Below, piece after piece: positions 40,596 through 56,391 of a stretch of DNA of 64,000 nucleotides. This DNA comes from Candidatus Saccharimonadia bacterium (GTDB lineage: Bacteria > Patescibacteriota > Saccharimonadia > UBA4664), in NCBI GenBank assembly GCA_035544015.1, contig DATKIP010000076.1:192299-256298 (forward strand). The letters run 5' to 3'. The position numbers and the translations under genes are program-made. Within the stretch, counting starts at the first letter, position 1. The number at the start of each line of letters is the position of its first letter. Under the pieces are notes generated by a model that searched no databases, had not been told where the DNA came from, and saw nothing but the letters and a program-made list of their open reading frames with translations.

Positions 40596-40973
40596 ATGTC
40601 AATTTGGCGGTATACTACACGATGTATGCGTTGCCGTCACGTACACTCTTCCCGAAAGAACGAAAATTCCGGAGTACCATCCATCGTGCCACCCAAACCA
40701 TTCTCACTCAGCGTCCTCGCAGCTCTCGCCACCGGCGAGGCGCATGTCTACGCCATTGAACAACAAATGATCGCCGATGTCCGGGGCGCTATTCTCATAA
40801 GCAGCCGATCAGTGTATCGCGAAATGCCGCGCTTAATCGCAGCTGGTCTCGTAGCGGCCACCGCCGATACTCGCCCACAAAAATACCGTCTCACGCCCCA
40901 TGGCCGCCGCACGCTCCATACTGAACGTGAGCGCGCCCTCCAGACCTATCGGCTGCTCCAGAAACGCCTCTAA
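40596..40973 (+). CDS. PadR-like winged-helix transcriptional regulator
   Basis: FSLSVLAALATGEAHVYAI...YREMPRLIAAGLV resembles PadR. Start likely internal to the listed ORF. Confidence 0.5.
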   Translation: MSIWRYTTRCMRCRHVHSSRKNENSGVPSIVPPKPFSLSVLAALATGEAHVYAIEQQMIADVRGAILISSRSVYREMPRLIAAGLVAATADTRPQKYRLTPHGRRTLHTERERALQTYRLLQKRL

Positions 40974-42130
40974 AGTTCGAAATAATTCCACAATTTAGAC
41001 GACAAATCCCCAAACAGCGCGGGTGCGCCACCCGGTGTATTCCACGGACCCGAGGTCACTACCACCAAATAATTAGTCTTGGGGCCGTACACCACGCCCG
41101 CGTCATGCACGAATCCATCCAGATCGCCGGTTTTGTGGGCGATCACCGTTCCCGCCGGCAAACCTTGCGGCAGGCGGTTGTTCACCCGCTGATCCTTGAG
41201 CAGCCCCATGAAGTTATTAGTCGAATTCGACGACACCAGCGTGCCGCTGTAGAGTCGCGTCAACAACGTTGATACATCCTGAGCCGAGGTTTTTTGCGGG
41301 GTAGCCAAATTCGTTTGCGTGTAACCTTCTATCTGCAGCGCCTGGTTTTGCTGGCCCCAACCGAGAATATCGCCCAAAGCACGCCCGCAGGCGTTGTCCG
41401 AAACATTAATCATCACGCGCAAACAGTCGCTGATATTGCGCCCTGTGCCGCCGCCGGCCGCTTGTCCGTAATCGAGCTTACCGAGGTCGATCTGCTGGTA
41501 GATGCGCTGAGCCACAAACAGCTTATAGAGGCTGGCACTTTCCATTTGCTGATCAGGATTGATGCTGGCGGTGGCGCCGCTGGACAGATCTTTGACCACA
41601 ATCCCAAATTTACCCGGATTGGCGGCCGAAAAATCATCCAAAATCTGCTGCAAGCCGGCTTTTTGCGGCGTCGGCGCCGGAGTTGCCGCCGCCACGGCCG
41701 GCGCTGGGGTCGCAGCCGGGCTCGGCGCCGGCTTCTCGGCCGCCCGGGCCGTCGAAGTCGCCGGCGTCGACAGCCGGCTCACCGTGAGCGTGGAAACCAC
41801 CAGCGCCGTCGCCACCAGCCCAAAGGCGATGGCCGGCCGCCGCCAACCAATGTGCGGCAGTCGCAGCGACGGCAGCTGCCAGGCCGGAGTGAGCGTCGCA
41901 GCCGGCGCTTGCATCGCCGCCACCACTTCGCGCGGCGTCGTGCGCGGCACCGGCCGGCGAATGCCGTCCATGCCCACCGTGTAGCCGCGCGCCTCCGGCG
42001 CCGCCGTCAGGGGGCGTGCCATCATCGGCTGTTGCAAAACAGTCGCCCGAGGACGCATTGGCGTCGGCCGCACTCCATCCATCACACGAATCATAGATTT
42101 ACTATAAACGTAAGCATCATCTCCACACAA
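40970..42130 (-). CDS. Membrane-anchored class A beta-lactamase-like serine hydrolase
   Basis: N-terminal TM anchor and an Ala/Pro-rich linker. SxxK (SLYK), SDN (VSDNACG) and KTG (HKTGDLDG) motifs. Confidence 0.65.
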   Translation of the reverse strand: MCGDDAYVYSKSMIRVMDGVRPTPMRPRATVLQQPMMARPLTAAPEARGYTVGMDGIRRPVPRTTPREVVAAMQAPAATLTPAWQLPSLRLPHIGWRRPAIAFGLVATALVVSTLTVSRLSTPATSTARAAEKPAPSPAATPAPAVAAATPAPTPQKAGLQQILDDFSAANPGKFGIVVKDLSSGATASINPDQQMESASLYKLFVAQRIYQQIDLGKLDYGQAAGGGTGRNISDCLRVMINVSDNACGRALGDILGWGQQNQALQIEGYTQTNLATPQKTSAQDVSTLLTRLYSGTLVSSNSTNNFMGLLKDQRVNNRLPQGLPAGTVIAHKTGDLDGFVHDAGVVYGPKTNYLVVVTSGPWNTPGGAPALFGDLSSKLWNYFEL

Positions 42131-42169
42131 GCCACCCTTTCATTCTCGGCGTATAATGAGGGACAGAAT

Positions 42170-42583
42170 ATGGAGAAAATGATGAGACTTATCGACGTAT
42201 TGCCCACCACCACTGTGTATGCGCACTGCGACCTGCCGTGCGGCGTTTACGACCCAGCCCAGGCCCGCATAGAGGCCGAGTCGGTTCACAAAATTATGCA
42301 AAAATATGCCGACAACACCGACCAAGTCTTTCGTACCCGCGCCATTATTATCAAAGAAGAGCGTACCGAACTAGTGAAGCGCCATTTGTGGGTGCTCTGG
42401 ACCGATTATTTCAAGCCTGAGCATCTCGAAAAACATCCCAACCTCCACGACCTCTTTTGGCGAGCCACGAAGCAGGCGGGGGAGTGCAAGCACCACGTCG
42501 AACCCGAAGAAGGTCAGAAATTACTCGATCTCATTGCCGAAATTACCGAAATATTTAACGCCACGAAAGCCGCGGCCAAGTAG
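42170..42583 (+). CDS. sodN: Nickel-containing superoxide dismutase precursor
   Basis: Propeptide MEKMMRLIDVLPTTTVYA followed by the Ni-hook HCDLPCGVYDPA. 4-helix-bundle size (137 aa). GAGGGA RBS. Confidence 0.85.
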   Translation: MEKMMRLIDVLPTTTVYAHCDLPCGVYDPAQARIEAESVHKIMQKYADNTDQVFRTRAIIIKEERTELVKRHLWVLWTDYFKPEHLEKHPNLHDLFWRATKQAGECKHHVEPEEGQKLLDLIAEITEIFNATKAAAK

Positions 42584-42586
42584 CGC

Positions 42587-44086
42587 ATGCGCAAACTCTG
42601 GCCCCTGGGGCTCTACCGCGTGGCGGGTCACAGCATGCAGCCGACGCACCGGCCGGGCGACGTCGTGTTGGGCTGCCGCTGGTTTGTGCCCCGCCCCGGC
42701 CAAACCGTGGTGGCGCGCGCCGGCGGCGACCCGCTGCTCAAGCGCATCGAACGCATCGACGGCCGCCAGGTGTGGCTGGCCGGCGACAACCCCGCCGACT
42801 CGCACGATAGCCGCCACTTTGGCGCCGTCGACCGCTCGCAGCTCGAGGCCGTGATCGTGCCGTGGCGCCGGGCCGGCTTGGTAGCCGCCGCGCTCGTGGC
42901 GGTGGCCGGCGCCGCCGTCTTCGCCGCCGCGGCCATCCGGCCGCCAGGGCGCGGGGTCTATCGCGCCCCCGCGCCGACGCCCACGGCGACGGCCGCCCAG
43001 CCCAGCCCCGCCGCCACGCCGCCGTACGCCATGTCGGCGGGGCCCGCCCCCAAGGCGCCGCTCACCGTGCCGGCCGGCTATGCCATCCATGTGTTCGCCG
43101 ACCGCCAAGGCACCGCGCGCGATCTGCAATTTTCGCCCGGCGGCACCTTGCTCGTGTCCGATCCCAAGGCGCGCACCATCACCGCCCTGCCCGACAGCAA
43201 CCACGACGGCGCCGCCGATTCCGCCAAAATCATTCTCACCGGCGGCGACAACCCCCATGGCCTGGCTTTCCGCGGCGGCTACTTGTATGTGGCCGAAACC
43301 GGCCGCGTGATGCGCTACGCCTGGGACGAAACTACGCTCGCCGCCACCACCGGCCAAGAATTATTCAAACTCCCCACCCCCAACCCCGACCACAACAAAC
43401 GCACCATCACCTTCGGCGCCGACGACCAGCTGTACATCTCGGTCGGCTCCACCTGCAATGTCTGCCGCGAATCCGACCCGCACTCCGCCACCATCCTCAC
43501 GGCCGACGCCGACGGCCACAATCTGCGCACGTTCGCCTCCGGCCTGCGCAACGCCCCGTTCATGGCCATCAACCCCGCCACCAAGGAGCTCTGGTCCACC
43601 GAAATGGGCCGCGACAACCTCGGCGATACCACCCCGCCCGACGAAATCGACATCATCCACGACGGCTCCAACTACGGCTGGCCGATCTGTTACGGCGCCA
43701 AAATCCACGACACCGCCTTCGATCACGCCGCCTACCTCGCCGACCCCTGCGCCTCCACCGTTGGGCCCATCTACGGCGTCCCCGCCCACAATGCGCCGCT
43801 CGGCCTCGCCTTCATCGCCTCCCCGCAATGGCCCACCGACCAGCAAGGCGACCTGCTCGTGGCCTACCACGGCTCCTGGAACCGCAGCGTACCCGACGGC
43901 TACAAAGTGGTGCGCCTCACCGTCCGTGGCAACACCATCACCGGCACCACCGATATCGTCACCGGCTTCATCGCCGGCCGCAGCGTCTCCGCCCGCCCGG
44001 TCGACCTCACCTTCGACGCGCTGGGCAACCTCTACCTCTCCGACGATTACTCCGGCACCATTTATCTAATCCAAAAGCAGCTCTAA
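42587..44086 (+). CDS. sodX: SodX-like S26 signal-peptidase-family protease fused to a TM segment and a PQQ-type glucose/sorbosone dehydrogenase (GSDH) beta-propeller
   Basis: S26 boxes GHSMQPT, PGDVVLG and GDNPADSHDSRHFG. TM LVAAALVAVAGAAVFAAAAI. C-terminal GSDH-like repeats (YAIHVFADRQGTARDLQFSPGGTLLV..., GWPICYG). A single uninterrupted ORF. Confidence 0.7.
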   Translation: MRKLWPLGLYRVAGHSMQPTHRPGDVVLGCRWFVPRPGQTVVARAGGDPLLKRIERIDGRQVWLAGDNPADSHDSRHFGAVDRSQLEAVIVPWRRAGLVAAALVAVAGAAVFAAAAIRPPGRGVYRAPAPTPTATAAQPSPAATPPYAMSAGPAPKAPLTVPAGYAIHVFADRQGTARDLQFSPGGTLLVSDPKARTITALPDSNHDGAADSAKIILTGGDNPHGLAFRGGYLYVAETGRVMRYAWDETTLAATTGQELFKLPTPNPDHNKRTITFGADDQLYISVGSTCNVCRESDPHSATILTADADGHNLRTFASGLRNAPFMAINPATKELWSTEMGRDNLGDTTPPDEIDIIHDGSNYGWPICYGAKIHDTAFDHAAYLADPCASTVGPIYGVPAHNAPLGLAFIASPQWPTDQQGDLLVAYHGSWNRSVPDGYKVVRLTVRGNTITGTTDIVTGFIAGRSVSARPVDLTFDALGNLYLSDDYSGTIYLIQKQL

Positions 44087-44089
44087 CCC

Positions 44090-44548
44090 ATGCTCCTCCT
44101 CAGGCCTTTTCTCAAACCCTTCCGCTACGCCTTCCGCGAGCTCATCCTGCACCGCCGCAAACAAATCCCATTTTGGATCTTGGTCGGCTTTCTGCCCACC
44201 TTCTTCCTGGCGCGGTTTACCGTGCAGCACTTCCCGTATCTGTTCGTCCACGTCCACGGCACGCACGTCCATCATTTCATTTACGGCTTCTTCGTGCTCG
44301 CTACCATGGGCTTCATCGCCCTCATCACCGACCGCGCCCGCCGCGTGCAGGCCTTTTTCTACGGCGCCGGCCTCGCCCTCGCCTTCGATGAATTCGGTAT
44401 GTGGGTCCGCCTCACCGACCACTACAACATCGACGCCTCCGAGGACGCCATCGCCATCATCGCCGCCATCCTCGTGTTTCTGGTGTACGGTATCGGCATC
44501 GTCCGCCGCGCCCTCCCTCAGCTCAAAAAACTCCGCCCCCGCCGCTAG
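44090..44548 (+). CDS. Hypothetical integral membrane protein
   Basis: 152 aa, 4 TM helices. Immediately downstream of the sodX fusion. Confidence 0.45.
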   Translation: MLLLRPFLKPFRYAFRELILHRRKQIPFWILVGFLPTFFLARFTVQHFPYLFVHVHGTHVHHFIYGFFVLATMGFIALITDRARRVQAFFYGAGLALAFDEFGMWVRLTDHYNIDASEDAIAIIAAILVFLVYGIGIVRRALPQLKKLRPRR

Positions 44549-44614
44549 CGCATTGTCATTCGCCCCAAAATCTTGTACCATATGACGGTTCATCCCAGCC
44601 AAATATTCATCCAA

Positions 44615-44689
44615 TGGGGCGTGGCCAAGTGGTAAGGCGCTTGATTCTGGCTCAAGAGATCCTAGGTTCGAATCCTAGCGCCCCAGCCA
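44615..44689 (+). tRNA. tRNA-Gln (anticodon CTG), CCA encoded
   Basis: Acceptor TGGGGCG/CGCCCCA, anticodon stem-loop CTTGA-TTCTGGC-TCAAG, T-loop GGTTCGAATCC. Confidence 0.9.
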
Positions 44690-44791
44690 GTTATTATTTG
44701 TCATTTTGTATCTGTAACTTAGTTCGGTCATCGGGCGAGGGAGATAGTACGACCGAACTTTGGCCCATCGTCTATCTGTTAGAATTTACTC

Positions 44792-45541
44792 ATGCAATAT
44801 CAAGCGTTCATCTTCGACCTCGACGGCACGGCAATTCCCAACATTCCAAACGGCCTTCCTTCGGATCGATTGGTTAAGGCTATAGCTAAGGCAAAAGGAA
44901 GGCTGAGATTCTGTGCGGCCACTGGTAGGCCTATTACGAATGCAAAACCCATTTTGGACAGACTTAACTTGACCGATCCGTGCATTATCTCGGCGGGGAC
45001 ACAAATTGTTAATCCGCAAACCGGTCAAATCTTGTGGGAAGCCGCGCTTGATAACAAAGATGTCGCCGCTGTTCTGGATATTTGTAAGCCCCATCATTAC
45101 GAAGTCCTCATCCGTAATGAGCTGATGGGACAGGGTGCACCTGCCGCACGGCGCATCATTACCGAAAGCGTGAATGTCATATACATCATGCAATGCTCGG
45201 AAGCTGACGGCCAAGCAATTCTCAAAGAACTTGCCGAGGTTCCTAACATTACTGCCGCTGGCGTGTTGTCCTGGACAGGCGAAGGCCTTGATATCCATGT
45301 AACACACCGTGAAGCGACCAAGGAACATGCAATTGCCGAACTGCTAAAAATGCTGGACATCACCAAGGTACAAACTATTGGCGTAGGCGATGGCAATAAC
45401 GACGTCCATCTGTTTCGTGGGGTCGGCAAAAAAGTGGCGATGGGAAACGCGACCGAATTACTGAAGTCGCAGGCGGACGTTGTCTGTGATTCTGTCGACC
45501 ACGATGGACTTGCAAAGTTTATAGAAGAATTCATGTCGTAG
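44792..45541 (+). CDS. Cof-type HAD-IIB hydrolase
   Basis: Motif I FIFDLDGTAIP, C-terminal GDGNNDVHLF. Low-GC region. Confidence 0.75.
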   Translation: MQYQAFIFDLDGTAIPNIPNGLPSDRLVKAIAKAKGRLRFCAATGRPITNAKPILDRLNLTDPCIISAGTQIVNPQTGQILWEAALDNKDVAAVLDICKPHHYEVLIRNELMGQGAPAARRIITESVNVIYIMQCSEADGQAILKELAEVPNITAAGVLSWTGEGLDIHVTHREATKEHAIAELLKMLDITKVQTIGVGDGNNDVHLFRGVGKKVAMGNATELLKSQADVVCDSVDHDGLAKFIEEFMS

Positions 45542-45722
45542 CTCCTTCATCATCCTCATCGAGCAGTGCTCGCATCTGACCAATAGATCCCACAAGTTCA
45601 TCTAAACGAGTTGGGGTTCGATCCTCCAACATGATCCCCAGCCATTGCACTTATGCTTAAAATAACGGCTCGATGAGCCGTTATTTTGTTGTCCGCATAT
45701 ATCTCGTATAAAATTGTAAAGT

Positions 45723-46436
45723 ATGAATGAAGAGTTAAATACACCGGAGCATCGAAGCGATTTTAGTGGCGCACAATTGAGTCAAGAGCTTGAGCACCAA
45801 GCTGAGATTGGTAAATTGAGCGGAGATTTATTGCGGGACTTCTATCAAACTTTTCGTCTTTCACAAAAAGAGACAGCCATTCAACCGCCACTATTTAGTC
45901 TTCTGGCCGACCAGCATGTACAAGCCGGGCACCAAGACATATTGCCCACCGCCTTGAATGCAGCCGATAATAAGGTGGATGAATTACTGCCACCGCGCCG
46001 ACACGGCGATACTGATGAGGAATCCCGTAATAACTCCGAAACAGGCTTCCGGGCCATGTGGGCTGAATATTCAAAGGTGCTCCAGGTGCCAGATTCGGGC
46101 ATACGACGTACTCCCGAACTCATCTTGGAAGATATGCTAGCTCAAGACCTCTATTATCAGGAGAACGATCGCCCAAACCGGGGCGGTCAAGACGATGTCC
46201 ACGAAAGCATTGTCCGCGAGTATATACTTGGCAATCGACTTACTGGCTCAGATCAGCTCATGGCTGTTCGAAATCAATTGCGAGAGGCTCTAGTATCGCC
46301 ATCTGTTGACGATGACAGTGGCGGCGATTGGATGCTAAGACGCCGAGCAGAGTTGATAGAGGAGTGGGAAGCCAATCACTCCAGCCAGTCGTTTATGTCG
46401 CAAGACCGGCAGGACCCATCGCTAAAAGGGTTCTAA
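45723..46436 (+). CDS. Hypothetical protein
   Basis: 237-aa ORF in a low-GC island. No family recognised. Confidence 0.35.
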   Translation: MNEELNTPEHRSDFSGAQLSQELEHQAEIGKLSGDLLRDFYQTFRLSQKETAIQPPLFSLLADQHVQAGHQDILPTALNAADNKVDELLPPRRHGDTDEESRNNSETGFRAMWAEYSKVLQVPDSGIRRTPELILEDMLAQDLYYQENDRPNRGGQDDVHESIVREYILGNRLTGSDQLMAVRNQLREALVSPSVDDDSGGDWMLRRRAELIEEWEANHSSQSFMSQDRQDPSLKGF

Positions 46437-46610
46437 CTTCGTTAACTAGCCCCAGCCAAGGAATTTTACAGATAAGAAGCCGACCAATTTAGATCGCATC
46501 AGTCGTTTCCGTTATTCCACAAATGCAAATCGCCCCCACAAGGAGGGCGGCTGCCAACTTCGTGGGGGCGTATGGTGGATAAGGAAGAGGCTTCCTTATC
46601 CCATGTTCAT

Positions 46611-47018
46611 CTACTCATAGAATGGGTAGACTACTTCGTGTAGCATGAGGCAAAATATCTTGCCCCGTTTCGTCAGCGCAAGCCCCATATTCGTGCCGGT
46701 AACCAGCCCCAGCCTCAACATCTCTGCTATGGCGGCCGCAGGGTAAAACTCGGGTATTATGAGCGTCAGGTGCATCGCGTGCCAGACCTTGTACTTCTTC
46801 GCGCGCCTCACCCCATTGGCCAGGTCTACGCGAAACCCGAACGTGAAGTTGCCACCGGTAGCGTTGAAGTCTTCATCGGAGAAGACTTCAGACCATGCTT
46901 TAGGGCCTCCCATGTAGAAGTCCCTTTCTTGCCTATCCAACTCCTCGTCCCGCCGTATTTCTGCGCGCGAGCGGGTATCAACCGGTGGAGGTGTTGGGTG
47001 TCGGCCCCGTCCGAACAT
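46611..47018 (-). CDS. Hypothetical protein
   Basis: 135-aa ORF in a low-GC island. Confidence 0.3.
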   Translation of the reverse strand: MFGRGRHPTPPPVDTRSRAEIRRDEELDRQERDFYMGGPKAWSEVFSDEDFNATGGNFTFGFRVDLANGVRRAKKYKVWHAMHLTLIIPEFYPAAAIAEMLRLGLVTGTNMGLALTKRGKIFCLMLHEVVYPFYE

Positions 47019-47311
47019 GCTTGCTCCTTTAGGTCTTGGTCACCGCTATGCTCCATTCTCTAAGTCCAAAGAGGGAAGTTGGTCAAAGGATGAGCTTTAC
47101 ATGGCTACTCCAATCTCGAGGAGGCAAAACTTATTATAGCATACTTTCTCGTATAATCAAATCTAGCTTCTCTTCGAGAACACTGCTAAGGGGCGAAAGG
47201 CAAAAGTTTTAGGCTGGGTAGGTAGAACGACCAAAATTTAGTTCTCGCTCTTCAGACCCCATGCCCGTGATGCTAAAATAGTATCGTTGCGAATGCATAA
47301 GGAGGCAAGGC

Positions 47312-47686
47312 ATGGACAAATATGTAGATGGCTTCGTACTAGTGGTACCGGCGGATAAAGCCGACGAATACAAAAAAATGGCTACTATGGGCCGTGATTC
47401 GTGGATGAAGCACGGCGCACTTTCGTATTACGAGTGTAAGGCGAACGACCTCGCGCAGCAAAAAATGGGCGACCAAGCTACGCGCTCATTTAACGAAATG
47501 GCGGGAGCGAAAGATGGCGAAGATGTCTGGTTTTCGTTCATTGTCTTTAAATCCAAAGAACATCGCGATGAGGTTAACGCTAAAGTCATGGCAGAAATGA
47601 GCGAAATGGAGCACCCAGCCGAGCCTATGCCTGCCGATATGACACGTATGGCTTATGGTGGTTTTACGGTTGAGGTCGAGGGCTAA
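47312..47686 (+). CDS. DUF1428-family protein
   Basis: MDKYVDGFVLVVP N-terminus typical of DUF1428 (YbaA-like). AGGAGG RBS. Confidence 0.5.
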   Translation: MDKYVDGFVLVVPADKADEYKKMATMGRDSWMKHGALSYYECKANDLAQQKMGDQATRSFNEMAGAKDGEDVWFSFIVFKSKEHRDEVNAKVMAEMSEMEHPAEPMPADMTRMAYGGFTVEVEG

Positions 47687-47751
47687 CTTTAAAGTTTGGA
47701 CTATCTTTCTCCTCCCCAGCCAATGCACCTGTTTCTGATATAATCGTCTGC

Positions 47752-48132
47752 ATGAAGCAAATCGAACAAACCTATGTCATCAAGGCTCCTTTAGAAAAAG
47801 TCTGGCAGGCACTCACGACAGCCGAAGGCGCCGAACAATGGGGGGCTGGCCCCGCAAAATTTGATGCTACCGAAGACGGCGAATTCAGCTACTGGAACGG
47901 AGATATCCACGGTATTAATACGAAGGTCGTTTCAGAGAAGCTACTTGAGCAGGATTGGTACGGCCATGATCATCCAGAAGAAAAATACCGTGCCGTATTC
48001 TCGTTTGAGATGAAGGGTAACACTACTCTCGTTCACCTGGCTTATTCGGGTCACATCTACGATGAGCAAAGAGACATCGACGACTGGCGCGAATATTATT
48101 TTGATCCGATCAAGAGGCTGCTTGAGTCATAA
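47752..48132 (+). CDS. SRPBCC-superfamily protein (AHSA1/polyketide-cyclase-like)
   Basis: IKAPLEKVWQALTTAEGAEQW START-domain-like N-terminus. Confidence 0.6.
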   Translation: MKQIEQTYVIKAPLEKVWQALTTAEGAEQWGAGPAKFDATEDGEFSYWNGDIHGINTKVVSEKLLEQDWYGHDHPEEKYRAVFSFEMKGNTTLVHLAYSGHIYDEQRDIDDWREYYFDPIKRLLES

Positions 48133-48149
48133 TCAGGGCGCTGACACTT

Positions 48150-48683
48150 ATGAACATCCTCATCCGTCCAGAAACCACCACCGACTTCGACAGGATAGCC
48201 GACGTAGTCACCCGCGCCTTCAAGCGGCCGGGCGTGGCCGAGCTAATCAGGCATATCCGGGCCTCGGACAATTACGTGCCGGGGCTCTCGCTCGTGGCCG
48301 AACGCGACGGCCAAATCATTGGGCATATCATGCAGAGCTATGTCACGCTCGAAGATGGCAGCCGGCGGCACAAAATTCTGACGTTGTCGCCCCTAGCAGT
48401 CGACCCCCAGTTTCACAAACAAGGTATTGGCTCACAACTGGTCCGGGAAGCGATTCGCCGAGCTGACGAGCGGGGTGAATCCTTGATCGTCCTCGAAGGC
48501 CGCCCCGAGTACTACACCCGGTTCGGTTTCCGGCCTTCCTATCAGCTAGACATCGAATACCCACTACCCGACTGGGCGCCGGCGGAAGCGGGCCAGGCCC
48601 TACCGCTTTCGGGCAACAGCCCCGCACTAGCACCCAAGGGCAAGGTTGTCTACCCCGAATACTTCAAACTTGCCGAGCACTAG
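48150..48683 (+). CDS. GNAT-family N-acetyltransferase
   Basis: Acetyl-CoA motif A QGIGSQLVREAI. Confidence 0.75.
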   Translation: MNILIRPETTTDFDRIADVVTRAFKRPGVAELIRHIRASDNYVPGLSLVAERDGQIIGHIMQSYVTLEDGSRRHKILTLSPLAVDPQFHKQGIGSQLVREAIRRADERGESLIVLEGRPEYYTRFGFRPSYQLDIEYPLPDWAPAEAGQALPLSGNSPALAPKGKVVYPEYFKLAEH

Positions 48684-48773
48684 TCGCCAGGATTAAGCAA
48701 CAATGCCACACGTTTTCTCTGGCTCGCCGTGCTACGCTATAGCCGTTAAAAAACTAAAACAAAAGGAGTTCCT

Positions 48774-48983
48774 ATGTCCAACGTAAATGCCACACAAGAG
48801 GTCATCATTGTAATCGGTGATGCGAGCGGGGATGGTGGCCATTTTGTCGTGACCCCGCACGGCGTAAAACGCGTGCCCGACAATAACCCGGGGCTACGCG
48901 AAGCCTACAAAGCCATAGCCAAGAACTACGCCATCCTACAAAAGGCCGCATTGGACCAAAAGCTACCCGAACAAAACCGCTAG
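48774..48983 (+). CDS. Hypothetical small protein
   Basis: 69 aa with a GGAG RBS. Confidence 0.3.
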   Translation: MSNVNATQEVIIVIGDASGDGGHFVVTPHGVKRVPDNNPGLREAYKAIAKNYAILQKAALDQKLPEQNR

Positions 48984-49076
48984 AGTTCTGCCGCAAAAAG
49001 TTCCAGAAAATATCTTCTGGAACTTTTTATTTTGCCCACCAAGCCAGCACAATCTTCCTTTTGTTATGATAGTCGC

Positions 49077-49862
49077 ATGCACACCGAGCAAAGATTTCTG
49101 GATGACAAAGGTCGCTTGCGGCAATGGCCGTCTAGGCGTTCCGACAAATTACTGGCGGTGGCTTATTTGGCGACCAAGTTCGACTTCAAGGCCAGCTACA
49201 CTGAATCCGAAGTTAACGAGCTGCTCAAGCAATGGCATACATTCAATGATTGGCCACTTCTTAGGCGCGAGCTTTACGAACAAGGCTTCCTTGATCGCAA
49301 TACCGACGGCTCAAATTATCGCATCAAACGCCTCCAAACCTCGATGCCCGATCTCAGTCTCACAAATCCTAACATCAAAAGCGACCCAGCCATCAGCGTC
49401 GAGTGGCTTGCGGGCGAACCCGGCAAAGAGACCCTTCGGCTCATGGGTAGCACCGAGACAAACAACAAACCGTCAACCCTAAAGGCTGAAGAGCAACGTA
49501 TCCGAGAGTTTATCACATCCACGAATCAGCGAACGTGGAACCTGCACTACAGGACCAAAACAGTCGGGGCAACCTGGATTGACCTTGAGTCGAGTAAATA
49601 CCTTAAGTCTCCATCAATCCACATTATGATCGGCGATCCAAATGTGCGCGGAAAAGGCCTCGCCCAAGCCACCCTGCAGGCGGTTATCGAGCTATTGGAG
49701 AAAGAAGGCGAATACCAACATCTTCACTCAAGACACTTGGTCGAAAATACCGCTTCCGCCAAACTACTCGCAAGGGTCGGCTTCGCCAATGATGGCGACG
49801 AGTACACGGATGCCGATGGACTAGTATTCCAAAATGTTAAGCGGTCACTGCGCCATCAATAA
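49077..49862 (+). CDS. DUF2087-like N-domain fused to a GNAT acetyltransferase
   Basis: C-terminal GNAT motif RGKGLAQATLQAVIELL. ATG at 49077. Confidence 0.5.
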   Translation: MHTEQRFLDDKGRLRQWPSRRSDKLLAVAYLATKFDFKASYTESEVNELLKQWHTFNDWPLLRRELYEQGFLDRNTDGSNYRIKRLQTSMPDLSLTNPNIKSDPAISVEWLAGEPGKETLRLMGSTETNNKPSTLKAEEQRIREFITSTNQRTWNLHYRTKTVGATWIDLESSKYLKSPSIHIMIGDPNVRGKGLAQATLQAVIELLEKEGEYQHLHSRHLVENTASAKLLARVGFANDGDEYTDADGLVFQNVKRSLRHQ

Positions 49863-49993
49863 GGTCTAACATCCATTCCTAAATCTGTACTCACGGGGCC
49901 TCTTTGCCCAGCCATAAAAAAGACTGACCTAACGTCAGTCTTTTTTATTTCCGCTCCACCTCATCGGTAGATGCAAGTCGTTAAAGCCCAAGC

Positions 49994-50602
49994 CTAGTTC
50001 GCTGCCGCCGTAGCCTTGCGGAAATAGCCCCGTGTCGAAGGAATCGCGAGAAGAATGAGGATGAGTATCGAACCCAAGATCACCACAACGTTGCGCGCAT
50101 TCACCAGAGAAGATACCCAGCTAGGGTAGGCGTTAAAGGCCGCATCGACCAGCTTTTGCACATTTAGGCTCTGCAGAGCCGCATCCCCTGTGCTCTTGAA
50201 TACAGACTCCAGCGTCGAAACAACAGCTGCTTGGCTGGCCATGATCAGGAAGTTGCCAGCCAGGACGAGCGGTTGAAGGACCCAAGACAGGATCAGGCCA
50301 GCTCGCTTTCCAGCGAGGTTAAGCCAGGCCAGAGTTATCATGATCAGGGCGACGATGGTAGGGACGATGGTGGCAGCGCCGTTCTCGGTGAAACTGATAT
50401 GGTTCTGGGTCAAAAGAGCAGTCGAATGCCCCTGTCGCACCATCTCGGCGTCCACCGCCGTCTGGACTTGAGCGCCGTACATGAGGCCAATGATGGGTAT
50501 GCTCAAGAAAGCTAACCCAATCAGAGCCTGTACTATCGCCACGACAGTTACGGCTTGAGGACGGCTCCTAGAAGTTTGACGTGAATTGGTTTGTTTGCTC
50601 AT
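49994..50602 (-). CDS. Hypothetical integral membrane protein
   Basis: 202 aa, about 5 TM helices. At the edge of the low-GC island. Confidence 0.45.
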   Translation of the reverse strand: MSKQTNSRQTSRSRPQAVTVVAIVQALIGLAFLSIPIIGLMYGAQVQTAVDAEMVRQGHSTALLTQNHISFTENGAATIVPTIVALIMITLAWLNLAGKRAGLILSWVLQPLVLAGNFLIMASQAAVVSTLESVFKSTGDAALQSLNVQKLVDAAFNAYPSWVSSLVNARNVVVILGSILILILLAIPSTRGYFRKATAAAN

Positions 50603-50772
50603 GATATTTCCTTTTAGTTAGATCGTTATAAAAATAGAATCCCGCGTTTACATTAAATACCGCTTAAATAAAGCACCATTCCCCCCCCAATAACAATATA
50701 AGTCATAATACTATGACTGTCAAGGTAATCTAATGAAAACTATTCTTTTCAAGGAGATGATCGCCCACGCCG

Positions 50773-52188
50773 CTACAGCAACTCAAGCAAGTCCGTCTGG
50801 TCATAATAAGGAATCGGCCGGGCGTCATCGAAGCCAATAAACAGATTAGAAAACAGGGTATTCCGGTCTATAGTATCGCTCGTTAAATTATGAGCTTTCG
50901 ACAAGAACGTTATCGCTTTGCCATTCTGGCTAATAGAGGGATCTAGGCTGTGATTATCACTCGGTACCCCATTGTGCGATGCCCGGCTAATGAGGCGCGT
51001 GGCACCAAAGTTGGTGTAGTACAAAAAGACATCAATATTGGTGGTGTCGGCCCGAACCAAGTTGGGTGCGTAGGACGCGTAAACCACATATTGGCCATCA
51101 CCACTAATATCGGCGGCAAAGCTGTTGTCGGTACCGAGCGCCCCCTTGGTCGATTTGCTAACGAGCGTAGTAGTGCCTTTCGCGCGGTTATAGAGAAATA
51201 CATCCACTTTGTGATTGTTGTCACCGGGCACCAGGTTCGGGGCGGTCGATTCGTAGACGATGAAGTTTCCATCCGTGCTTATGACCGGTTGGGTAGAATT
51301 GCTAGCGCCAAAACCGTATAGGCCACTAGTCACGAAGATAAGATTGTTGTCCCAAAGATCGTATAAATAAATATCGGGCTGACCATTATAATCAAAGCGC
51401 GTGAGCCGTTCGTCGGTTGAAAACGCAATAAAACGACCAGTATCGTTTATGGTCGCGTCCCAAAAACCACTCTCACTAATCTGATCATCCGCATTGGTGA
51501 GCTCAATCACTCGTGTCGTCCGTCCTTCGAGGTTTCGTATAACGAGGCGGTAGCCATCCGTATTGTTTACCGTGCGATGGTAGGTCAGAAATGTCACATA
51601 CCTGCCGTCGCGGGTAATAACCGGCGCCTGGCCGCCGACGCCCGTCTGGATGGCCGGAAGCCGCCGCTTACCGTCTGAGTCAACGTTTACGGCTTGAGTA
51701 TATTTTGTTATCAGGTCATGCACGATTATGTTGGTGCAGGGGTCGGCTGACCCCAGGCAAAATTTGTCCAGGCCAGGCGCCACATCGCGCGCGGTCGTGG
51801 CATAGGCTACGAAGCGACCATCGGCCGAGATCGTCGGCACATAGCTACCGCCCGAGGCCGGCTCGCCCGCCGCATTACGACTAACGAGGATGGTTTTTTG
51901 AGTGATGCGATCGTAAGCGTATACCTGTTCCATGGCGTTATGGGGGCCACTCGTTAGGTTGCTCGACGGTGACGAGAATACCGTTACGCGGCCATCGGCA
52001 CTTACGGTGCGCGCCCGAGCTTTGTGGATGTCTTCATTGGCGCCCGCGCCAGTTTGCCCCTTGGTGGCGAGCGTTGTGGTGCTTAAGCTACTGGCACCGG
52101 CGCTCGCGAGCGGGATCGCAGCTAGGATGCCTCCTGTCATTACGGTTACGATTGCTTGCCATACCCTGGTTTTTAGTAATTTTTCCAT
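50773..52188 (-). CDS. Secreted TolB-like (PD40/WD40-like) beta-propeller protein
   Basis: Signal peptide, then at least 6 PD40-like repeats (ISADGRFVAYAT, ITRDGRYVTFLT, INDTGRFIAFST, ISTDGNFIVYES, ISGDGQYVVYAS, ISQNGKAITFLS). Confidence 0.65.
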   Translation of the reverse strand: MEKLLKTRVWQAIVTVMTGGILAAIPLASAGASSLSTTTLATKGQTGAGANEDIHKARARTVSADGRVTVFSSPSSNLTSGPHNAMEQVYAYDRITQKTILVSRNAAGEPASGGSYVPTISADGRFVAYATTARDVAPGLDKFCLGSADPCTNIIVHDLITKYTQAVNVDSDGKRRLPAIQTGVGGQAPVITRDGRYVTFLTYHRTVNNTDGYRLVIRNLEGRTTRVIELTNADDQISESGFWDATINDTGRFIAFSTDERLTRFDYNGQPDIYLYDLWDNNLIFVTSGLYGFGASNSTQPVISTDGNFIVYESTAPNLVPGDNNHKVDVFLYNRAKGTTTLVSKSTKGALGTDNSFAADISGDGQYVVYASYAPNLVRADTTNIDVFLYYTNFGATRLISRASHNGVPSDNHSLDPSISQNGKAITFLSKAHNLTSDTIDRNTLFSNLFIGFDDARPIPYYDQTDLLELL

Positions 52189-52346
52189 ACGACCCTTTGC
52201 ACATTACTTGCATGCTACTTATAAGCCAACGAGATGAATTTATGATGATACCCGGGGCAAGCATTGCTGGCACCCTCCGTCCCCACTTCATATTTCTTTA
52301 AATTTCTTATGGTATAGTCACCCCAATTAACTTTGTGAGGTTACGG

Positions 52347-52526
52347 ATGCCCAACCTTGGCGTCGGAGAACTATTAGTAATTTTGGCGATCATCTTGCTG
52401 TTGTTCGGGGGCAAGAAACTACCCGAGCTGTCGAGGAGTCTGGGCGAGGGGGTGCGTGAACTGCGCCTGGGTCTCAAGGGAGGATCAGATAAGCCTGATG
52501 AGGCAGCCAAGCGTAAGGCGAAGTAG
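52347..52526 (+). CDS. tatA: Sec-independent protein translocase TatA/E
   Basis: MPNLGVGELLVILAIILLLFGGKKLPELSRSLGEGVRELR, the canonical TatA TM plus amphipathic helix. Confidence 0.8.
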   Translation: MPNLGVGELLVILAIILLLFGGKKLPELSRSLGEGVRELRLGLKGGSDKPDEAAKRKAK

Positions 52527-52533
52527 GGACACC

Positions 52534-53439
52534 ATGCCTGCAAGTTTATCCGGGCGGCAGCCCTTCATCGAGCACCTGCATGAGCTCCGTCGACGGTTAT
52601 TCTGGTCGCTGGGGACGGTGGCGATTGGCGCGGCCGCGGGCTACCAGTTGCATCAGCAGCTGATGGATATCCTGCTTCGGCCCTATGGCCAAAAGTTGTA
52701 CTACTCATCGTTGACCGGCGGTCTCGATTTTCTGATTCGGATTTGCCTATTTTTTGGCATTCTCGTAGCCATTCCAGTGGTGACCTATAATCTGCTGCGT
52801 TTCATCGAGCCGGTCATGAAGCACGGCTTTCATGCCCGCATCCTGAAGCTTTTGGGCTGCTCCGTGGCGTTGGCAGTGGCTGGGATTATGTTTGCGTATT
52901 TTGTCTGCCTGCCGGCCGCCGTTCAGTTTTTGTCCAATTTCGGCGGAGGTCGAATCCAGGCCCTCGTATCGACCGATCAATATCTCAACTTTGTCATGAT
53001 TTACCTGGCTGGTTTCGCGGCCATCTTCCAGCTCCCGCTGATACTCCTGTTTATTAATCACGTCACGCCCTTGCCGCCGAGGACCCTCATGAAGCAACAG
53101 CGCATCTTCATCGTGGCTAGTTTTGTAGCGGCGGCGATCATCACGCCCACGCCGGATGCCGTTAATATGGCCATTATGGCGCTGCCGATGATCCTGCTTT
53201 ACCAGGGCACCATTCTCGTGATCTGGCTGCGCAACCGGGCGAGGAAGGGCCCAGTCGAGCTCGCGCCTGAGCCCGCGCCAGTGGCGGCCTCCCGCGCAGT
53301 GGGCGTACTGGATCTCACGCGGCAGGTACCAGCGCCAAGGCCGCGCCCACCCGCCAACCTGCTCGACCTACGCGCCCCCAGCTGGCCAACCTCGCCCCCA
53401 CCTTCTCATCAGCTAAATTTAAGGACAAAAGACCAATGA
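52534..53439 (+). CDS. tatC: Sec-independent protein translocase TatC
   Basis: HLHELRRRLFWSL N-terminus, 6 TM helices. ATG 8 nt after the tatA stop. Confidence 0.85.
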   Translation: MPASLSGRQPFIEHLHELRRRLFWSLGTVAIGAAAGYQLHQQLMDILLRPYGQKLYYSSLTGGLDFLIRICLFFGILVAIPVVTYNLLRFIEPVMKHGFHARILKLLGCSVALAVAGIMFAYFVCLPAAVQFLSNFGGGRIQALVSTDQYLNFVMIYLAGFAAIFQLPLILLFINHVTPLPPRTLMKQQRIFIVASFVAAAIITPTPDAVNMAIMALPMILLYQGTILVIWLRNRARKGPVELAPEPAPVAASRAVGVLDLTRQVPAPRPRPPANLLDLRAPSWPTSPPPSHQLNLRTKDQ

Positions 53440-53663
53440 CGAACATCAGCCAATCCGTTCGCGAATTATTAAAAAAGGATGTCGACCGCAAGGAATTTCT
53501 GGCTCACATCGGAGCAGCGGTCGTGGCCGTCTCGGGCATTGCGGGCATCATAAAGGCCGTGGCAGAAGCAGACGGCAAAGCCAAGCCGATCTCGGGAGGC
53601 TACGGCGCTAGTGCCTACGGGGGAGCGGCCAAACCGGCCAACGTTCAAAGGCGGTTTCTATAA
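53436..53663 (+). CDS. Hypothetical small protein with a hydrophobic core
   Basis: 75 aa. Overlaps the tatC stop. Confidence 0.3.
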   Translation: MTNISQSVRELLKKDVDRKEFLAHIGAAVVAVSGIAGIIKAVAEADGKAKPISGGYGASAYGGAAKPANVQRRFL

Positions 53664-55016
53664 CGGCTCCGGCTTATGCCTGAACGGGAGCTTCACGATA
53701 AACTCCGTACGATCGCTGCGCGGACTGAGTCTAAGGCTACCCGAAAAACTTGTTTCCACCGTCTGCTTTGCAATAAATAAGCCCAGACCCAGACCGGTTT
53801 TCTTGCTGCTATGGAATGGTTTGAACAATTGCTTTCGCTCAAGCTTGGGAATGCCCCGTCCCCAATCGCTTATGTGAATGCTCATATGCGTATCATCCCA
53901 CCGAGCCGATATATCGACGCGCCGATCATGAGAGGAGATCGCCCCTGCACCGGGATCGGGGTAGGCGTCAATCGCGTTACTCACAAGGGTTGCGATAACC
54001 TGGCCGAAACAGCTGGAGTCACCCAAGTACTCCCGCGAACCAGCCGGAGGCCGCCAGTCGATAGCAACCCCAGCATCCTTGGCTTTGTAATGCAAAAACG
54101 TCACGACTTCGGTCATCTTCCGAACCATGTCGAAGGCTTGCTCCTTGGGCTTTCCCTGCAGCCGTTCGCGCGTGCTATCCACGATGCCCTCGAGGTAAAG
54201 CAGTATTTCCTTGGCCCGGGCGAGTGTTCTCATGTGCTCTTTGTCTTGCAGATCCTCAATCTCAAGATTGAGGGCAGTCAAATGGTTGGCCAGATCGTGC
54301 AGCAAGGCAACTCCTAGCTGGCCCAGTTCGGCAAAACGATACATATGTCGCATTTCTTCTACTTGCATATGGCGCAACTGAGACGTGCGTTTTTTGACTT
54401 GCCGCTCGAGAGTATTCTTTTGAAGCAACAAAGCCGACTCCGCCCGCTTCGCCTGGTCCAGGGAGCGTTCCATGTCTCGGTTGTAGAGCCAACATACGAG
54501 CGCCAGCATGCCAAACACCACGCAGTATGTCAGGACGTCGCCAAAAGTTGATTGGTGCCGCGTCCAAGAAATATCGGGCGAGTGCCAGCCAAAGACAATC
54601 GCCACTTGCGCCCCCATGAGGACCGCACCGGCTGCAAGCGCCGCAAACAGCGAATGACGCGAGGTCAGCAAGACGCCGGCAAGCACAATAACGAGCGCAA
54701 AAATAAGTTCCCCAATCGGGGCATTTAAGCCCCAGGTCCAGATGATCCCGGTGGCTATCAAGATATAGAACGAAATGATCAAGCAGGCCGCCGCATAATG
54801 ATAATTGCGACGTGCCAGCAGCTGGGCCACGGCAATATAGAGCAGTGCCAGACAACAAACACCCATTCCCACGAGCACCTTGGGGCTGGTGAAGACTTCG
54901 TGCCCCGCCCGCACAGCCAGCCAAATCCACACCACCCCTATCCCGAAGTAGCTACCAGCCACCATGGTTTTACAAATCACTTGGATATTACGAAGCGTGT
55001 AATTCAGTGGGTACAT
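53658..55016 (-). CDS. Sensor histidine kinase
   Basis: N-terminal multi-TM sensor. H-box HDLANHLTAL. HATPase N/G boxes at the C-terminus. Confidence 0.8.
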   Translation of the reverse strand: MYPLNYTLRNIQVICKTMVAGSYFGIGVVWIWLAVRAGHEVFTSPKVLVGMGVCCLALLYIAVAQLLARRNYHYAAACLIISFYILIATGIIWTWGLNAPIGELIFALVIVLAGVLLTSRHSLFAALAAGAVLMGAQVAIVFGWHSPDISWTRHQSTFGDVLTYCVVFGMLALVCWLYNRDMERSLDQAKRAESALLLQKNTLERQVKKRTSQLRHMQVEEMRHMYRFAELGQLGVALLHDLANHLTALNLEIEDLQDKEHMRTLARAKEILLYLEGIVDSTRERLQGKPKEQAFDMVRKMTEVVTFLHYKAKDAGVAIDWRPPAGSREYLGDSSCFGQVIATLVSNAIDAYPDPGAGAISSHDRRVDISARWDDTHMSIHISDWGRGIPKLERKQLFKPFHSSKKTGLGLGLFIAKQTVETSFSGSLRLSPRSDRTEFIVKLPFRHKPEPL

Positions 55017-55067
55017 GCTTTCCTAGTAGCCATGAATGACCATATTGCAACGTAAACGCTCCGTTTA

Positions 55068-55745
55068 CTATTTGTCATCAACCATATAGCCAATACCGTA
55101 GGCGGTTTTAATGAGCGATCCCCCAAAAGGACGGTCCACCTTGTCGCGAAGGTTCTTGATATGAACATCGACAGTGTTGTTCCATCCCTCGGTGCCGGCT
55201 TCCCACACATGCTCCAGAATCATCGACCGGGTGAGCGCGCGGCCCTTATTCGCGACCAAGTACTCGAGCACATCAAACTCTTTGCGGCGCAGCGGAATGG
55301 TTACACCCGAGCGCGATACATGGCGGCGGGTAATATTAACGGTGAGATCACTCACGCCGACAATTTTCTCCTCATGTAGTTCGGTGCCTCGGCGCAACAA
55401 CGCGGCAATGTGCGCCTTTAAAACCCCTCCGTTAAATGGCTTTGTTAGGTAGTCGTCTGCACCACAATTAAGGAGTTGGATCGAAGTGAGGGGGTCCTTC
55501 TCGACCGTTAGGACGAGGATAGGAGCAGTAATTTTCAGGCTACGCAGTTCACGACAGACATCCACCCCGCTCATGTCCGGCAACCCAACATCGAGAAGAA
55601 TGAGGCTGTACTGGACTGCGCAGGCACTTTCAACGCCCTCACGACCCGTGTGTACGGAGTCAACTACGTAGTGAGCATAAAGAAGCTTTCTTACGCTGGC
55701 AACAAGCAACTGATTGTCATCAATATAGAGGATTTTCATTATCAA
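55068..55745 (-). CDS. OmpR-family response regulator
   Basis: Receiver (ILYIDDN...LILLDVGLPDMSG) plus a winged-helix DNA-binding domain (VHIKNLRDKV...GIGY). Confidence 0.85.
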   Translation of the reverse strand: MIMKILYIDDNQLLVASVRKLLYAHYVVDSVHTGREGVESACAVQYSLILLDVGLPDMSGVDVCRELRSLKITAPILVLTVEKDPLTSIQLLNCGADDYLTKPFNGGVLKAHIAALLRRGTELHEEKIVGVSDLTVNITRRHVSRSGVTIPLRRKEFDVLEYLVANKGRALTRSMILEHVWEAGTEGWNNTVDVHIKNLRDKVDRPFGGSLIKTAYGIGYMVDDK

Positions 55746-55941
55746 AAATAATTAATTATCTATAAAAGAAAAATACTGAGAACTTATTAAGATGCTATGA
55801 ACTTTTGCGCAAAAACGTGGGGCCGGAATCAACGGTCCCACGGGGCCCAAAAGTGATTTTGGCGATATGTCCAGGAATTCAGACTGAGTTAATCACTAGT
55901 CCATACACTACCGCTATTAGAACTTAAACAAGGATCGTAGA

Positions 55942-56391
55942 ATGAAAAAAATAATGGCTGGATTATTAGCGGCCGTAATCGTGTCGGTAGGTGCAGCATC
56001 GGGCGGCGCCCATGCAGCTGGTACCCCGCCTCAAACCGACGTCACCGGAGTAATCACCGAAAATAGCATAGCGGTGGCCGGTGCGACAGTTACCGTGACC
56101 TGTAACGGTAACGCACAGGTCGACACCACCACGGACGCCCATGGCTCGTATCTCGTAGTTTTCCCCGTGGCTGACTGCGCTTTCGGTGATACCGTCAAGG
56201 TTGTAGCCAAGAAGGGCGGCAAGAGCGGTGTCTCGAGCGGCACGGTTACCGGAATCACCACGAAGCTCAATCTCGCTATTGTGAACGTCTCAATCCCTGA
56301 GTTTGGCCTACTGGGATCGCTCATGGCCGGTACTGCCGGGATCGGCATGCTCGCCTACATGCGCCGCCGCCAACAAGACTTTGAAGCGTAG
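55942..56391 (+). CDS. Small secreted protein with a transthyretin/CarboxypepD_reg-like core and a C-terminal PEFG-hydrophobic-RRR sorting signal (putative exosortase substrate, paralog 1)
   Basis: Signal peptide. Core GVITENSIAVAGATVTVTCNG...TDAHGSYLVVF...DCAFG. C-terminus IPEFGLLGSLMAGTAGIGMLAYMRRRQ. Confidence 0.6.
   Translation: MKKIMAGLLAAVIVSVGAASGGAHAAGTPPQTDVTGVITENSIAVAGATVTVTCNGNAQVDTTTDAHGSYLVVFPVADCAFGDTVKVVAKKGGKSGVSSGTVTGITTKLNLAIVNVSIPEFGLLGSLMAGTAGIGMLAYMRRRQQDFEA

Follow-up and report, generated by a model that had tools for sequence, protein, structure and literature searches.

A SodX-like protease joined to a predicted PQQ-dependent propeller directly downstream of sodN in a Saccharimonadia genome

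In Streptomyces coelicolor the protein SCO5255 is SodX, the cognate peptidase of the nickel superoxide dismutase (NiSOD) SodN (PMC3919588). AA12 dehydrogenases such as CcPDH are six-bladed propellers, and in CcPDH the residues that bind pyrroloquinoline quinone (PQQ) or take part in catalysis are R273, H363, R430, N431, H539, H560, W563, N564 and R621 (PMC6881789). AA12-like six-bladed propellers, termed PQQ-6beta and carrying one or two Cys pairs, have been described in 247 candidate phyla radiation (CPR) genomes, with lanthanide signatures NERD…D or NGRD…D, and no CPR genome was found to carry PQQ biosynthesis genes (Voutsinos et al., bioRxiv 10.64898/2026.07.10.737718). The word 'superoxide' has 0 occurrences in that preprint, which mentions neither SOD nor a SodX fusion, and literature searches turned up only generic mentions of NiSOD or sodN in Saccharibacteria and of GSDH propellers in Patescibacteria. 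Here we describe a single open reading frame (ORF) that joins a SodX-like protease, a membrane helix and an AA12-like propeller directly after sodN. It lies in a window of 64,000 nucleotides from a Candidatus Saccharimonadia bacterium (contig DATKIP010000076.1, positions 192,299 to 256,298); all coordinates below count from the first base of this window unless another locus is named.

The fused protein and its two halves

The ORF begins 3 nt past the sodN stop codon and continues without any internal stop through protease, membrane helix and a propeller of about 350 residues, just as a preliminary description of this DNA had claimed from the letters alone. Its 499-residue product is identical to HVQ44290.1, recorded as 'PQQ-dependent sugar dehydrogenase' in a Candidatus Saccharimonadia metagenome-assembled genome (MAG). 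Profile searches of the kind proposed there matched both halves. Against Pfam, the N-terminal part scores 34.5 bits with Peptidase_S24 and 29.8 bits with Peptidase_S26, and the C-terminal 350 residues score 59.9 bits with GSDH (PF07995, cutoff 25), with further matches to TrAA12 and DUF7133. The AlphaFold2 (AF2) model of the full-length protein has a mean predicted local distance difference test score (pLDDT) of 83.9.

The protease half shares with SodX its position directly downstream of sodN, the fold of the S24/S26 clan, a Ser/Lys dyad and the SMxPT, KR and GDN…DSR boxes. The S26-type boxes of the preliminary description have thus held up, with Ser16, Lys52-Arg53 and GDN66-68/D74-S75-R76 all invariant in an alignment of the domain with the clade's free-standing SodX-like proteins. 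Taken in isolation, the 98-residue domain scores 38.4 bits with PF00717 (cutoff 23.3) and 36.5 bits with PF10502 (cutoff 22.9), and a Foldseek search with an AF2 model of residues 1-98 (pLDDT 85) returns SipA and SpsB, both signal peptidases, along with LexA C-domains. The top NCBIfam match is the SodX model TIGR02754, which gives 39.8 bits for the whole fusion and 44.3 for the domain in isolation; both scores are under the cutoff of 63.25, as are those of all the Patescibacterial relatives (31.7-61.1 bits). We therefore call the protease SodX-like, from its sodN context and Ser/Lys dyad and not from a model score. It differs from SodX, too, in forming the N-terminus of a 499-residue membrane protein and not a free protein of about 95 residues. 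The length of 130-150 residues that had been taken as canonical for SodX proved too long: the clade's own SodX proteins have 92-113 residues, TIGR02754 has 90 positions, and most of the best 150 representatives of an exhaustive profile search (33,081 matches at an E-value of 0.001 or better) have 78-140.

The propeller half is modelled at pLDDT above 90, and it stands nearer to the AA12 pyranose dehydrogenases than to the classical soluble glucose dehydrogenases (sGDH). A phmmer search of PDB sequences ranks both CcPDH (6JT5, 1e-9) and TrAA12 above Asd and sGDH. The structural ranking by Foldseek agrees, with E 6e-24 for 6jt5, about 1e-21 for TrAA12, and about 1e-15 to 1e-17 for sGDH and Asd. 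The GSDH label given initially is correct at the level of the superfamily, as the PF07995 score shows, although AA12 is nearer. All nine CcPDH residues have counterparts in the window protein (R178, H269, R321, N322, H401, H428, W431, N432 and R470, in the same order), and these are invariant in 66/66 family members; R430 and N431 were mapped by their GLRN motif and the others through a HMMER alignment. The sGDH/Asd group (1CQ1, 2G8S, known as Asd/YliI, 3A9G and 2ISM; PF07995) shares the superfamily, the fold, the catalytic His and the RN pair, whereas the loop carrying His560, Trp563 and Asn564 is specific to AA12 and is present in the window propeller. The protein thus appears to be an AA12-like PQQ dehydrogenase, with CcPDH (6JT5/6JWF) and TrAA12 (6H7T) as the top matches in both sequence and fold.

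There are differences from those enzymes, however. Identity is 22-24%, and with the Pfam model TrAA12 the fusion reaches 26.1 bits, under that model's cutoff of 30.9. The window propeller is bacterial, from the CPR, and is membrane-anchored where CcPDH and TrAA12 are secreted; it has neither an AA8 cytochrome nor a carbohydrate-binding module. The CcPDH metal site reads N-S-L-D…E, compared with E339-M340-G341-R342-D343 in the window protein, where D347, D352 and E353 are also invariant. The family fits the PQQ-6beta propellers described from CPR genomes, with its nine PQQ residues and its invariant cysteines, four in number (C290, C293, C368 and C388 across the 66 sequences). Its metal-site motif reads MGRD, with Met and not Asn in first position, where the lanthanide signatures have NERD…D or NGRD…D.

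Between the two halves lies a single hydrophobic helix, part of one long helix at residues 83-116 in the AF2 model, and then a linker whose pLDDT is below 50 at residues 120-137. The counterpart of the helix in unfused propeller homologs is their N-terminal signal-anchor, and the linker aligns with equally variable linkers in those proteins. The unfused proteins have K/R-rich N-terminal tails ahead of one hydrophobic helix; this charge pattern, with which an outside location of the invariant cysteines is consistent, implies that they are probably oriented N-in, propeller-out. For the fusion, the predicted topology is accordingly a cytoplasmic protease, an N-in anchor and an external propeller.

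The junction and the split relatives

How did the two halves come to share one frame? Loci of relatives were collected with the full fusion protein as query, and propellers and SodX proteins were aligned separately, giving two alignments. The nearest homologs have the same neighbourhood as the window, with KhpA, trmD, a divergent Beta-lactamase2-family gene and then sodN, and sodX lies directly next to sodN in the window and in every relative seen with the order sodN-sodX-propeller. In the relatives listed in Table 1, sodX and the propeller gene are separate and either overlap or are a few bases apart. The window junction reads GGC TTG GTA GCC. Removal of one G of the GG dinucleotide at 42880-42881 gives GGC TTG TAG, closing a SodX of 98 residues, and at the same time lets the entire propeller be read from a GTG at 42862 (VAPGRLVAAALV…, about 407 residues). 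The window SodX part ends …PWRRAGL and the sodX of L003 ends …PTRRGL followed by its stop, to which the restored TAG is homologous. Since a single-base deletion restores both the sodX stop and a separate propeller ORF, the fusion is one inserted base (+1 nt) away from the canonical split arrangement. This fits the suggestion, made at the outset, of a gene fusion specific to the lineage, in that the relatives keep adjacent separate genes and the window differs by one G.

The search for the same fusion elsewhere gave a second fused protein, P0002, of 496 residues and 63% identity, which is found in two assemblies and again lies directly after sodN. Its junction, …IISKLP|APWLAPAIL…, differs from that of the window, with no stop nearby in any frame and no trace of a frameshift. 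Both fused proteins have kept the catalytic dyad and all nine PQQ residues. In a neighbour-joining tree of the propeller domain (computed in numpy, with 200 bootstraps) the window protein and P0002 are sisters in 0/200 replicates, and the window propeller groups at 84% with P0004, its closest complete relative, which is unfused, has its own ribosome-binding site and start codon, and has no sodX upstream. We conclude that these sequences point to two independent sodX-propeller fusions, because the two proteins are never sisters and their junctions differ.

Distribution, sodN and the neighbouring genes

The propeller is a widespread, predicted surface protein of Patescibacteria, and its adjacency to sodX is a trait of one Saccharimonadia clade. 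Two samples chosen by similarity, of 80 species-representative and 80 metagenome propeller loci, bear out the early judgement that the fusion is unusual: it occurs in 1/80 of the former (the P0002 genome) and 0/80 of the latter. NiSOD genes lie near the propeller in only two species-representative loci, the P0002 genome and L006, and in 0/80 metagenome loci, so that 78/80 and 80/80, or 158/160 in all, from many Patescibacteria classes, have the propeller with neither sodN nor sodX nearby. Within the clade the order sodN-sodX-propeller, in part with a gene for a 152-residue protein behind it, is kept in at least 6 lineages. In L006, sodN is followed by a MazG-like ORF (L006 2970..3293), then sodX, a gap of about 1.4 kb with opposite-strand ORFs, and finally the propeller, which shows that the cluster can be broken up. 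Many of the species-representative propeller MAGs (L008, L011, L012, L016 and others) are titled 'uncultured Gammaproteobacteria bacterium', titles that may be generic or wrong.

A different kind of SodX fusion also occurs. Among the representatives of the SodX profile search, seven of about 230-260 residues join a SodX-like domain to a C-terminal polytopic membrane domain that has the motif ALPFLLRMxLSPLAR. They resemble the window protein in having the SodX-like domain at the N-terminus, with membrane segments after it, behind sodN and in a KhpA-trmD context, as seen for the L093 gene, which directly follows sodN in that neighbourhood. They differ in their C-terminal part, which is polytopic, of about 150 residues, and not a propeller. 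No Pfam family matched this extension, and a relationship to the 152-residue protein of the window was considered and rejected (hhalign probability 0.4%). Since such proteins follow sodN elsewhere in Patescibacteria (L093), membrane tethering of SodX appears to be a recurrent and hence tolerated arrangement.

The sodN product passes both family models, at 150.3 bits with Pfam Sod_Ni (PF09055, cutoff 25) and 152.7 bits with TIGR02753 (cutoff 90), and has the canonical Ni-hook that the preliminary description had recognised. From what is known of NiSODs, the SodX cut is predicted directly before the hook His (…TVYA|HCD…). Two start codons are possible. The ATG at 42170, which opens the longest ORF, has GAGG 8 nt before it and gives the pro-peptide of 18 residues initially proposed, whereas the ATG at 42182, with a Shine-Dalgarno (SD)-like GGAG 6 nt before it, gives one of 14 residues. 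The shorter form is more likely, judging from the alignment, because every relative has a start codon at -14 from His1 of the hook and only three have the -18 ATG; the proposed 18 residues would stand only if ATG 42170 were used. The pro-peptide of Streptomyces SodN, which we take to have 14 residues, would be of the same length as that from the -14 start. A TATAAT at 42151-42156 lies upstream of the -18 ATG. By its sequence SodN has no signal peptide. No second copy of sodX, sodN or the propeller gene was found in the 64-kb window.

The gene for the 152-residue protein begins 3 nt after the fusion stop and follows the propeller gene also in L001/L002/L005, L004 and L087; it is probably in the same operon as the fusion. 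A scan of the cluster for promoters and terminators showed no excess of sites over shuffled sequence. The protein has no match in Pfam or NCBIfam. Its family comprises 188 homologs, all unnamed, of about 145-155 residues, from Saccharimonadia/Patescibacteria; with identities of up to 79% it is better conserved than the propeller, and it has an FDEFGMW motif as well as a cluster of invariant His residues (H59, H61 and H62 in HGTHVHHF). On these features it is a candidate metal-handling protein adjoining the NiSOD genes.

Divergent from sodN is the Beta-lactamase2-family gene (PF13354), whose product has a long N-terminal extension with a hydrophobic segment and scores far under cutoff with the class A beta-lactamase equivalog models; its position is kept in all relatives examined (L001-L004, L087 and L090). 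Between trmD and this gene the window has a PadR-family regulator ORF, which is absent there in L001, L003 and L004. Directly downstream of the cluster is a tRNA-Gln(CTG) gene, and GC content drops from about 0.63 to about 0.48-0.55 over some 11 kb (44600..56000). This low-GC stretch may be an island integrated at tRNA-Gln.

Table 1. Features of the fusion locus, with the corresponding genes of split relatives and the SodX::multi-TM proteins (aa, amino acids; TM, transmembrane)
Feature	Location	Strand	Basis or remark
PadR-family regulator ORF	40596..40973	+	
Beta-lactamase2-family gene (PF13354)	40970..42130	-	
sodN, nickel superoxide dismutase precursor	42170..42583 (likely start 42182)	+	family models, start conservation
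Ni-hook codons (HCDLPCGVY)	42224..42250	+	read directly from sequence
SodX::TM::AA12-like propeller fusion, one 499-aa ORF, ATG start	42587..44086	+	ORF listing, DNA reading, family scans
SodX-like S24/S26 serine protease domain, aa 1-95	42587..42871	+	profiles, invariant dyad, AF2 fold
Ser16 codon	42632-42634	+	SMxPT box
Lys52 codon	42740-42742	+	KR box (Lys52-Arg53)
GDN…DSR box	aa 66-76 (GDN66-68, D74-S75-R76)	+	alignment with stand-alone SodX-like proteins
In-frame GTG (Val91), possible internal start	42857..42859	+	SD scan: GAGG, 8-nt spacer
Single TM helix, aa 96-117, AGLVAAALVAVAGAAVFAAAAI	42872..42937	+	hydrophobic-window scan
GG dinucleotide at fusion junction	42880..42881	+	in-silico edit, three-frame translation, DNA alignment with split relatives
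Pro/Ala/Thr-rich linker, low predicted order, aa 118-149	42938..43033	+	pLDDT, alignment
Six-bladed beta-propeller, AA12-like / PQQ-6beta (GSDH superfamily) dehydrogenase type, aa 150-499	43034..44083	+	profiles, AF2, Foldseek, residues
152-aa polytopic membrane protein	44090..44548	+	ORF 3 nt after fusion stop
tRNA-Gln(CTG)	44615..44689		
L003: sodX 97 aa, propeller 405 aa	4-nt overlap		separate genes after sodN
L004: sodX 94 aa, propeller 430 aa	8-nt gap		separate genes after sodN
L087: sodX 93 aa, propeller 424 aa	4-nt overlap		separate genes after sodN
L090/L091: sodX 92 aa, propeller 406 aa	3-nt gap		separate genes after sodN
SodX::multi-TM proteins P0293, P0322, P0336, P0339, P0351, P0391; locus L093	L093 2575..3309		~150-aa multi-TM C-terminal part

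Origin and possible role of the fusion

We favour, with a probability of roughly 0.6, a real, rare and lineage-specific fusion of two neighbouring small-operon genes that was near-neutral and in which each half likely keeps its own job. In the ancestral state, which relatives still show, a sodX of about 95 codons ends a few bases from the propeller start, or overlaps the propeller gene, and in the window the extra G at 42880/42881 abolishes the sodX TAG stop and shifts reading into the propeller frame. The product would be bitopic: its Ser16/Lys52 protease would face the cytoplasm, the propeller's former N-in signal anchor would serve as its membrane helix, and a flexible linker would lead to the propeller outside the cell. 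SodX would simply replace the short cytoplasmic tail of the propeller, leaving both halves in their native compartments, and it is because both parents already had these locations that each half most likely keeps its function. SodX is expected to act in the cytoplasm, given what is known of NiSODs and the lack of a signal peptide on SodN. There it would clip the pro-peptide of about 14 residues off pro-SodN at the inner face of the membrane, exposing His1 of the Ni-hook, and the AA12-like propeller would oxidise an extracellular sugar with scavenged PQQ and a bound metal ion; these would be two independent activities of one polypeptide. The fusion would enforce co-expression and membrane tethering of SodX, and probably creates no new coupled activity.

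Several points weigh against this reading. The protease is under the curated TIGR02754 cutoff, the topology is a prediction and the K/R bias at the window helix is weak (3 before, 3 after), and the extra G is known from assembled sequence and sits exactly where an indel error would fake a fusion. If the genome truly had a single G, the 98-residue SodX and the propeller starting at GTG 42862 would be separate, as in the relatives; the fused and the perfect split states do differ by just one base, at the site homologous to the L003 stop. An exact-pattern scan of the JGI metagenome collection that accepted either a single base or two at the GG site found no match, so that this collection offers no contig with the window junction for a comparison of variants. 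A sequencing error is nevertheless unlikely, since the same 499-residue protein is found on 4 contigs, one of them a 320-kb MEGAHIT k141 contig at ENA, and is recorded identically by NCBI, JGI/IMG, ENA and Logan, with several assemblers in agreement. A GG dinucleotide, moreover, is no homopolymer of the kind at which short reads tend to err, and an independent lineage is fused with no frameshift signature. It is somewhat less likely again that the fusion is nominal, with separate SodX and propeller products arising from an internal start at GTG 42857 or from a signal-peptidase cut (…FAAAA|IRPP). The GTG does have a GAGG at optimal spacing, its product (VPWRRAGLVAAAL…) would be a typical n-region plus anchor as in unfused homologs, and there is an AxA-like motif at the end of the helix; yet P0002 has no in-frame start near its junction, so that there, at least, the propeller has to be produced in fused form, and the 22-residue hydrophobic stretch is more anchor-like than a cleavable signal. 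Self-processing at a SodN-like cleavage site in the linker was also considered and rejected, as only a 'VY' dipeptide is common to the two and it is absent in P0002.

The preference for near-neutrality is challenged by the two independent fusions, the conserved operon and the other fusions of SodX to membrane segments, all of which could indicate selection. SodX, the propeller anchor and perhaps the His-rich 152-residue protein might work together, for example in NiSOD maturation or Ni loading at the membrane, or in tying SOD capacity to a quinoprotein outside the cell, from whose reduced PQQ superoxide can arise. Selected coupling of this 'Rosetta stone' kind would account for a gene order held in at least 6 lineages of one Saccharimonadia clade, for fusion having occurred twice, for the separate and recurrent SodX::multi-TM class directly after sodN and for both fused domains having been kept intact. 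Against it, the propeller stands without sodN or sodX in 158/160 sampled loci, and the adjacency is broken in P0004, L006 and L088. Protease and propeller are predicted to be separated by the membrane, which superoxide is not known to cross, and overlapping stop and start codons make an accidental fusion mechanically easy. Functional coupling of SodX and propeller is possible, given the conserved operon and the repeated fusions, although we regard it as doubtful; the loci with the propeller alone and the predicted sidedness also tell against the coupling of NiSOD maturation with a periplasmic redox or sugar-binding module that the preliminary description had put forward as one option. More doubtful still is that the whole sodN/sodX/PQQ-propeller/152-residue cluster is a functional unit of this clade, with SodX working at the membrane and NiSOD maturation or Ni loading organised there, the 152-residue protein being a candidate Ni-handling partner and the quinoprotein a linked source or sensor of oxidative stress. 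If SodX did work at the membrane in such a unit, this would explain its having been fused to anchors at least 3 separate times, twice to that of the propeller and once or more to multi-TM segments.

By itself, then, the fusion reveals no new mechanism: its modules are known, its origin is mechanistically simple, and it seems to be an accident of dense packing that was tolerated. As such it is a clean and datable case of how, in the tightly packed, ultra-small genomes of the CPR, a single base change can turn neighbours into a multidomain protein, and such a fusion survives when the membrane topologies of its parents are compatible. It also provides a natural construct for asking whether SodX must be free or acts when membrane-tethered. 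Finally, it draws attention to a conserved NiSOD-centred operon of Saccharimonadia, in which an AA12-like quinoprotein, in organisms unable to make PQQ, is found together with a His-rich membrane protein.

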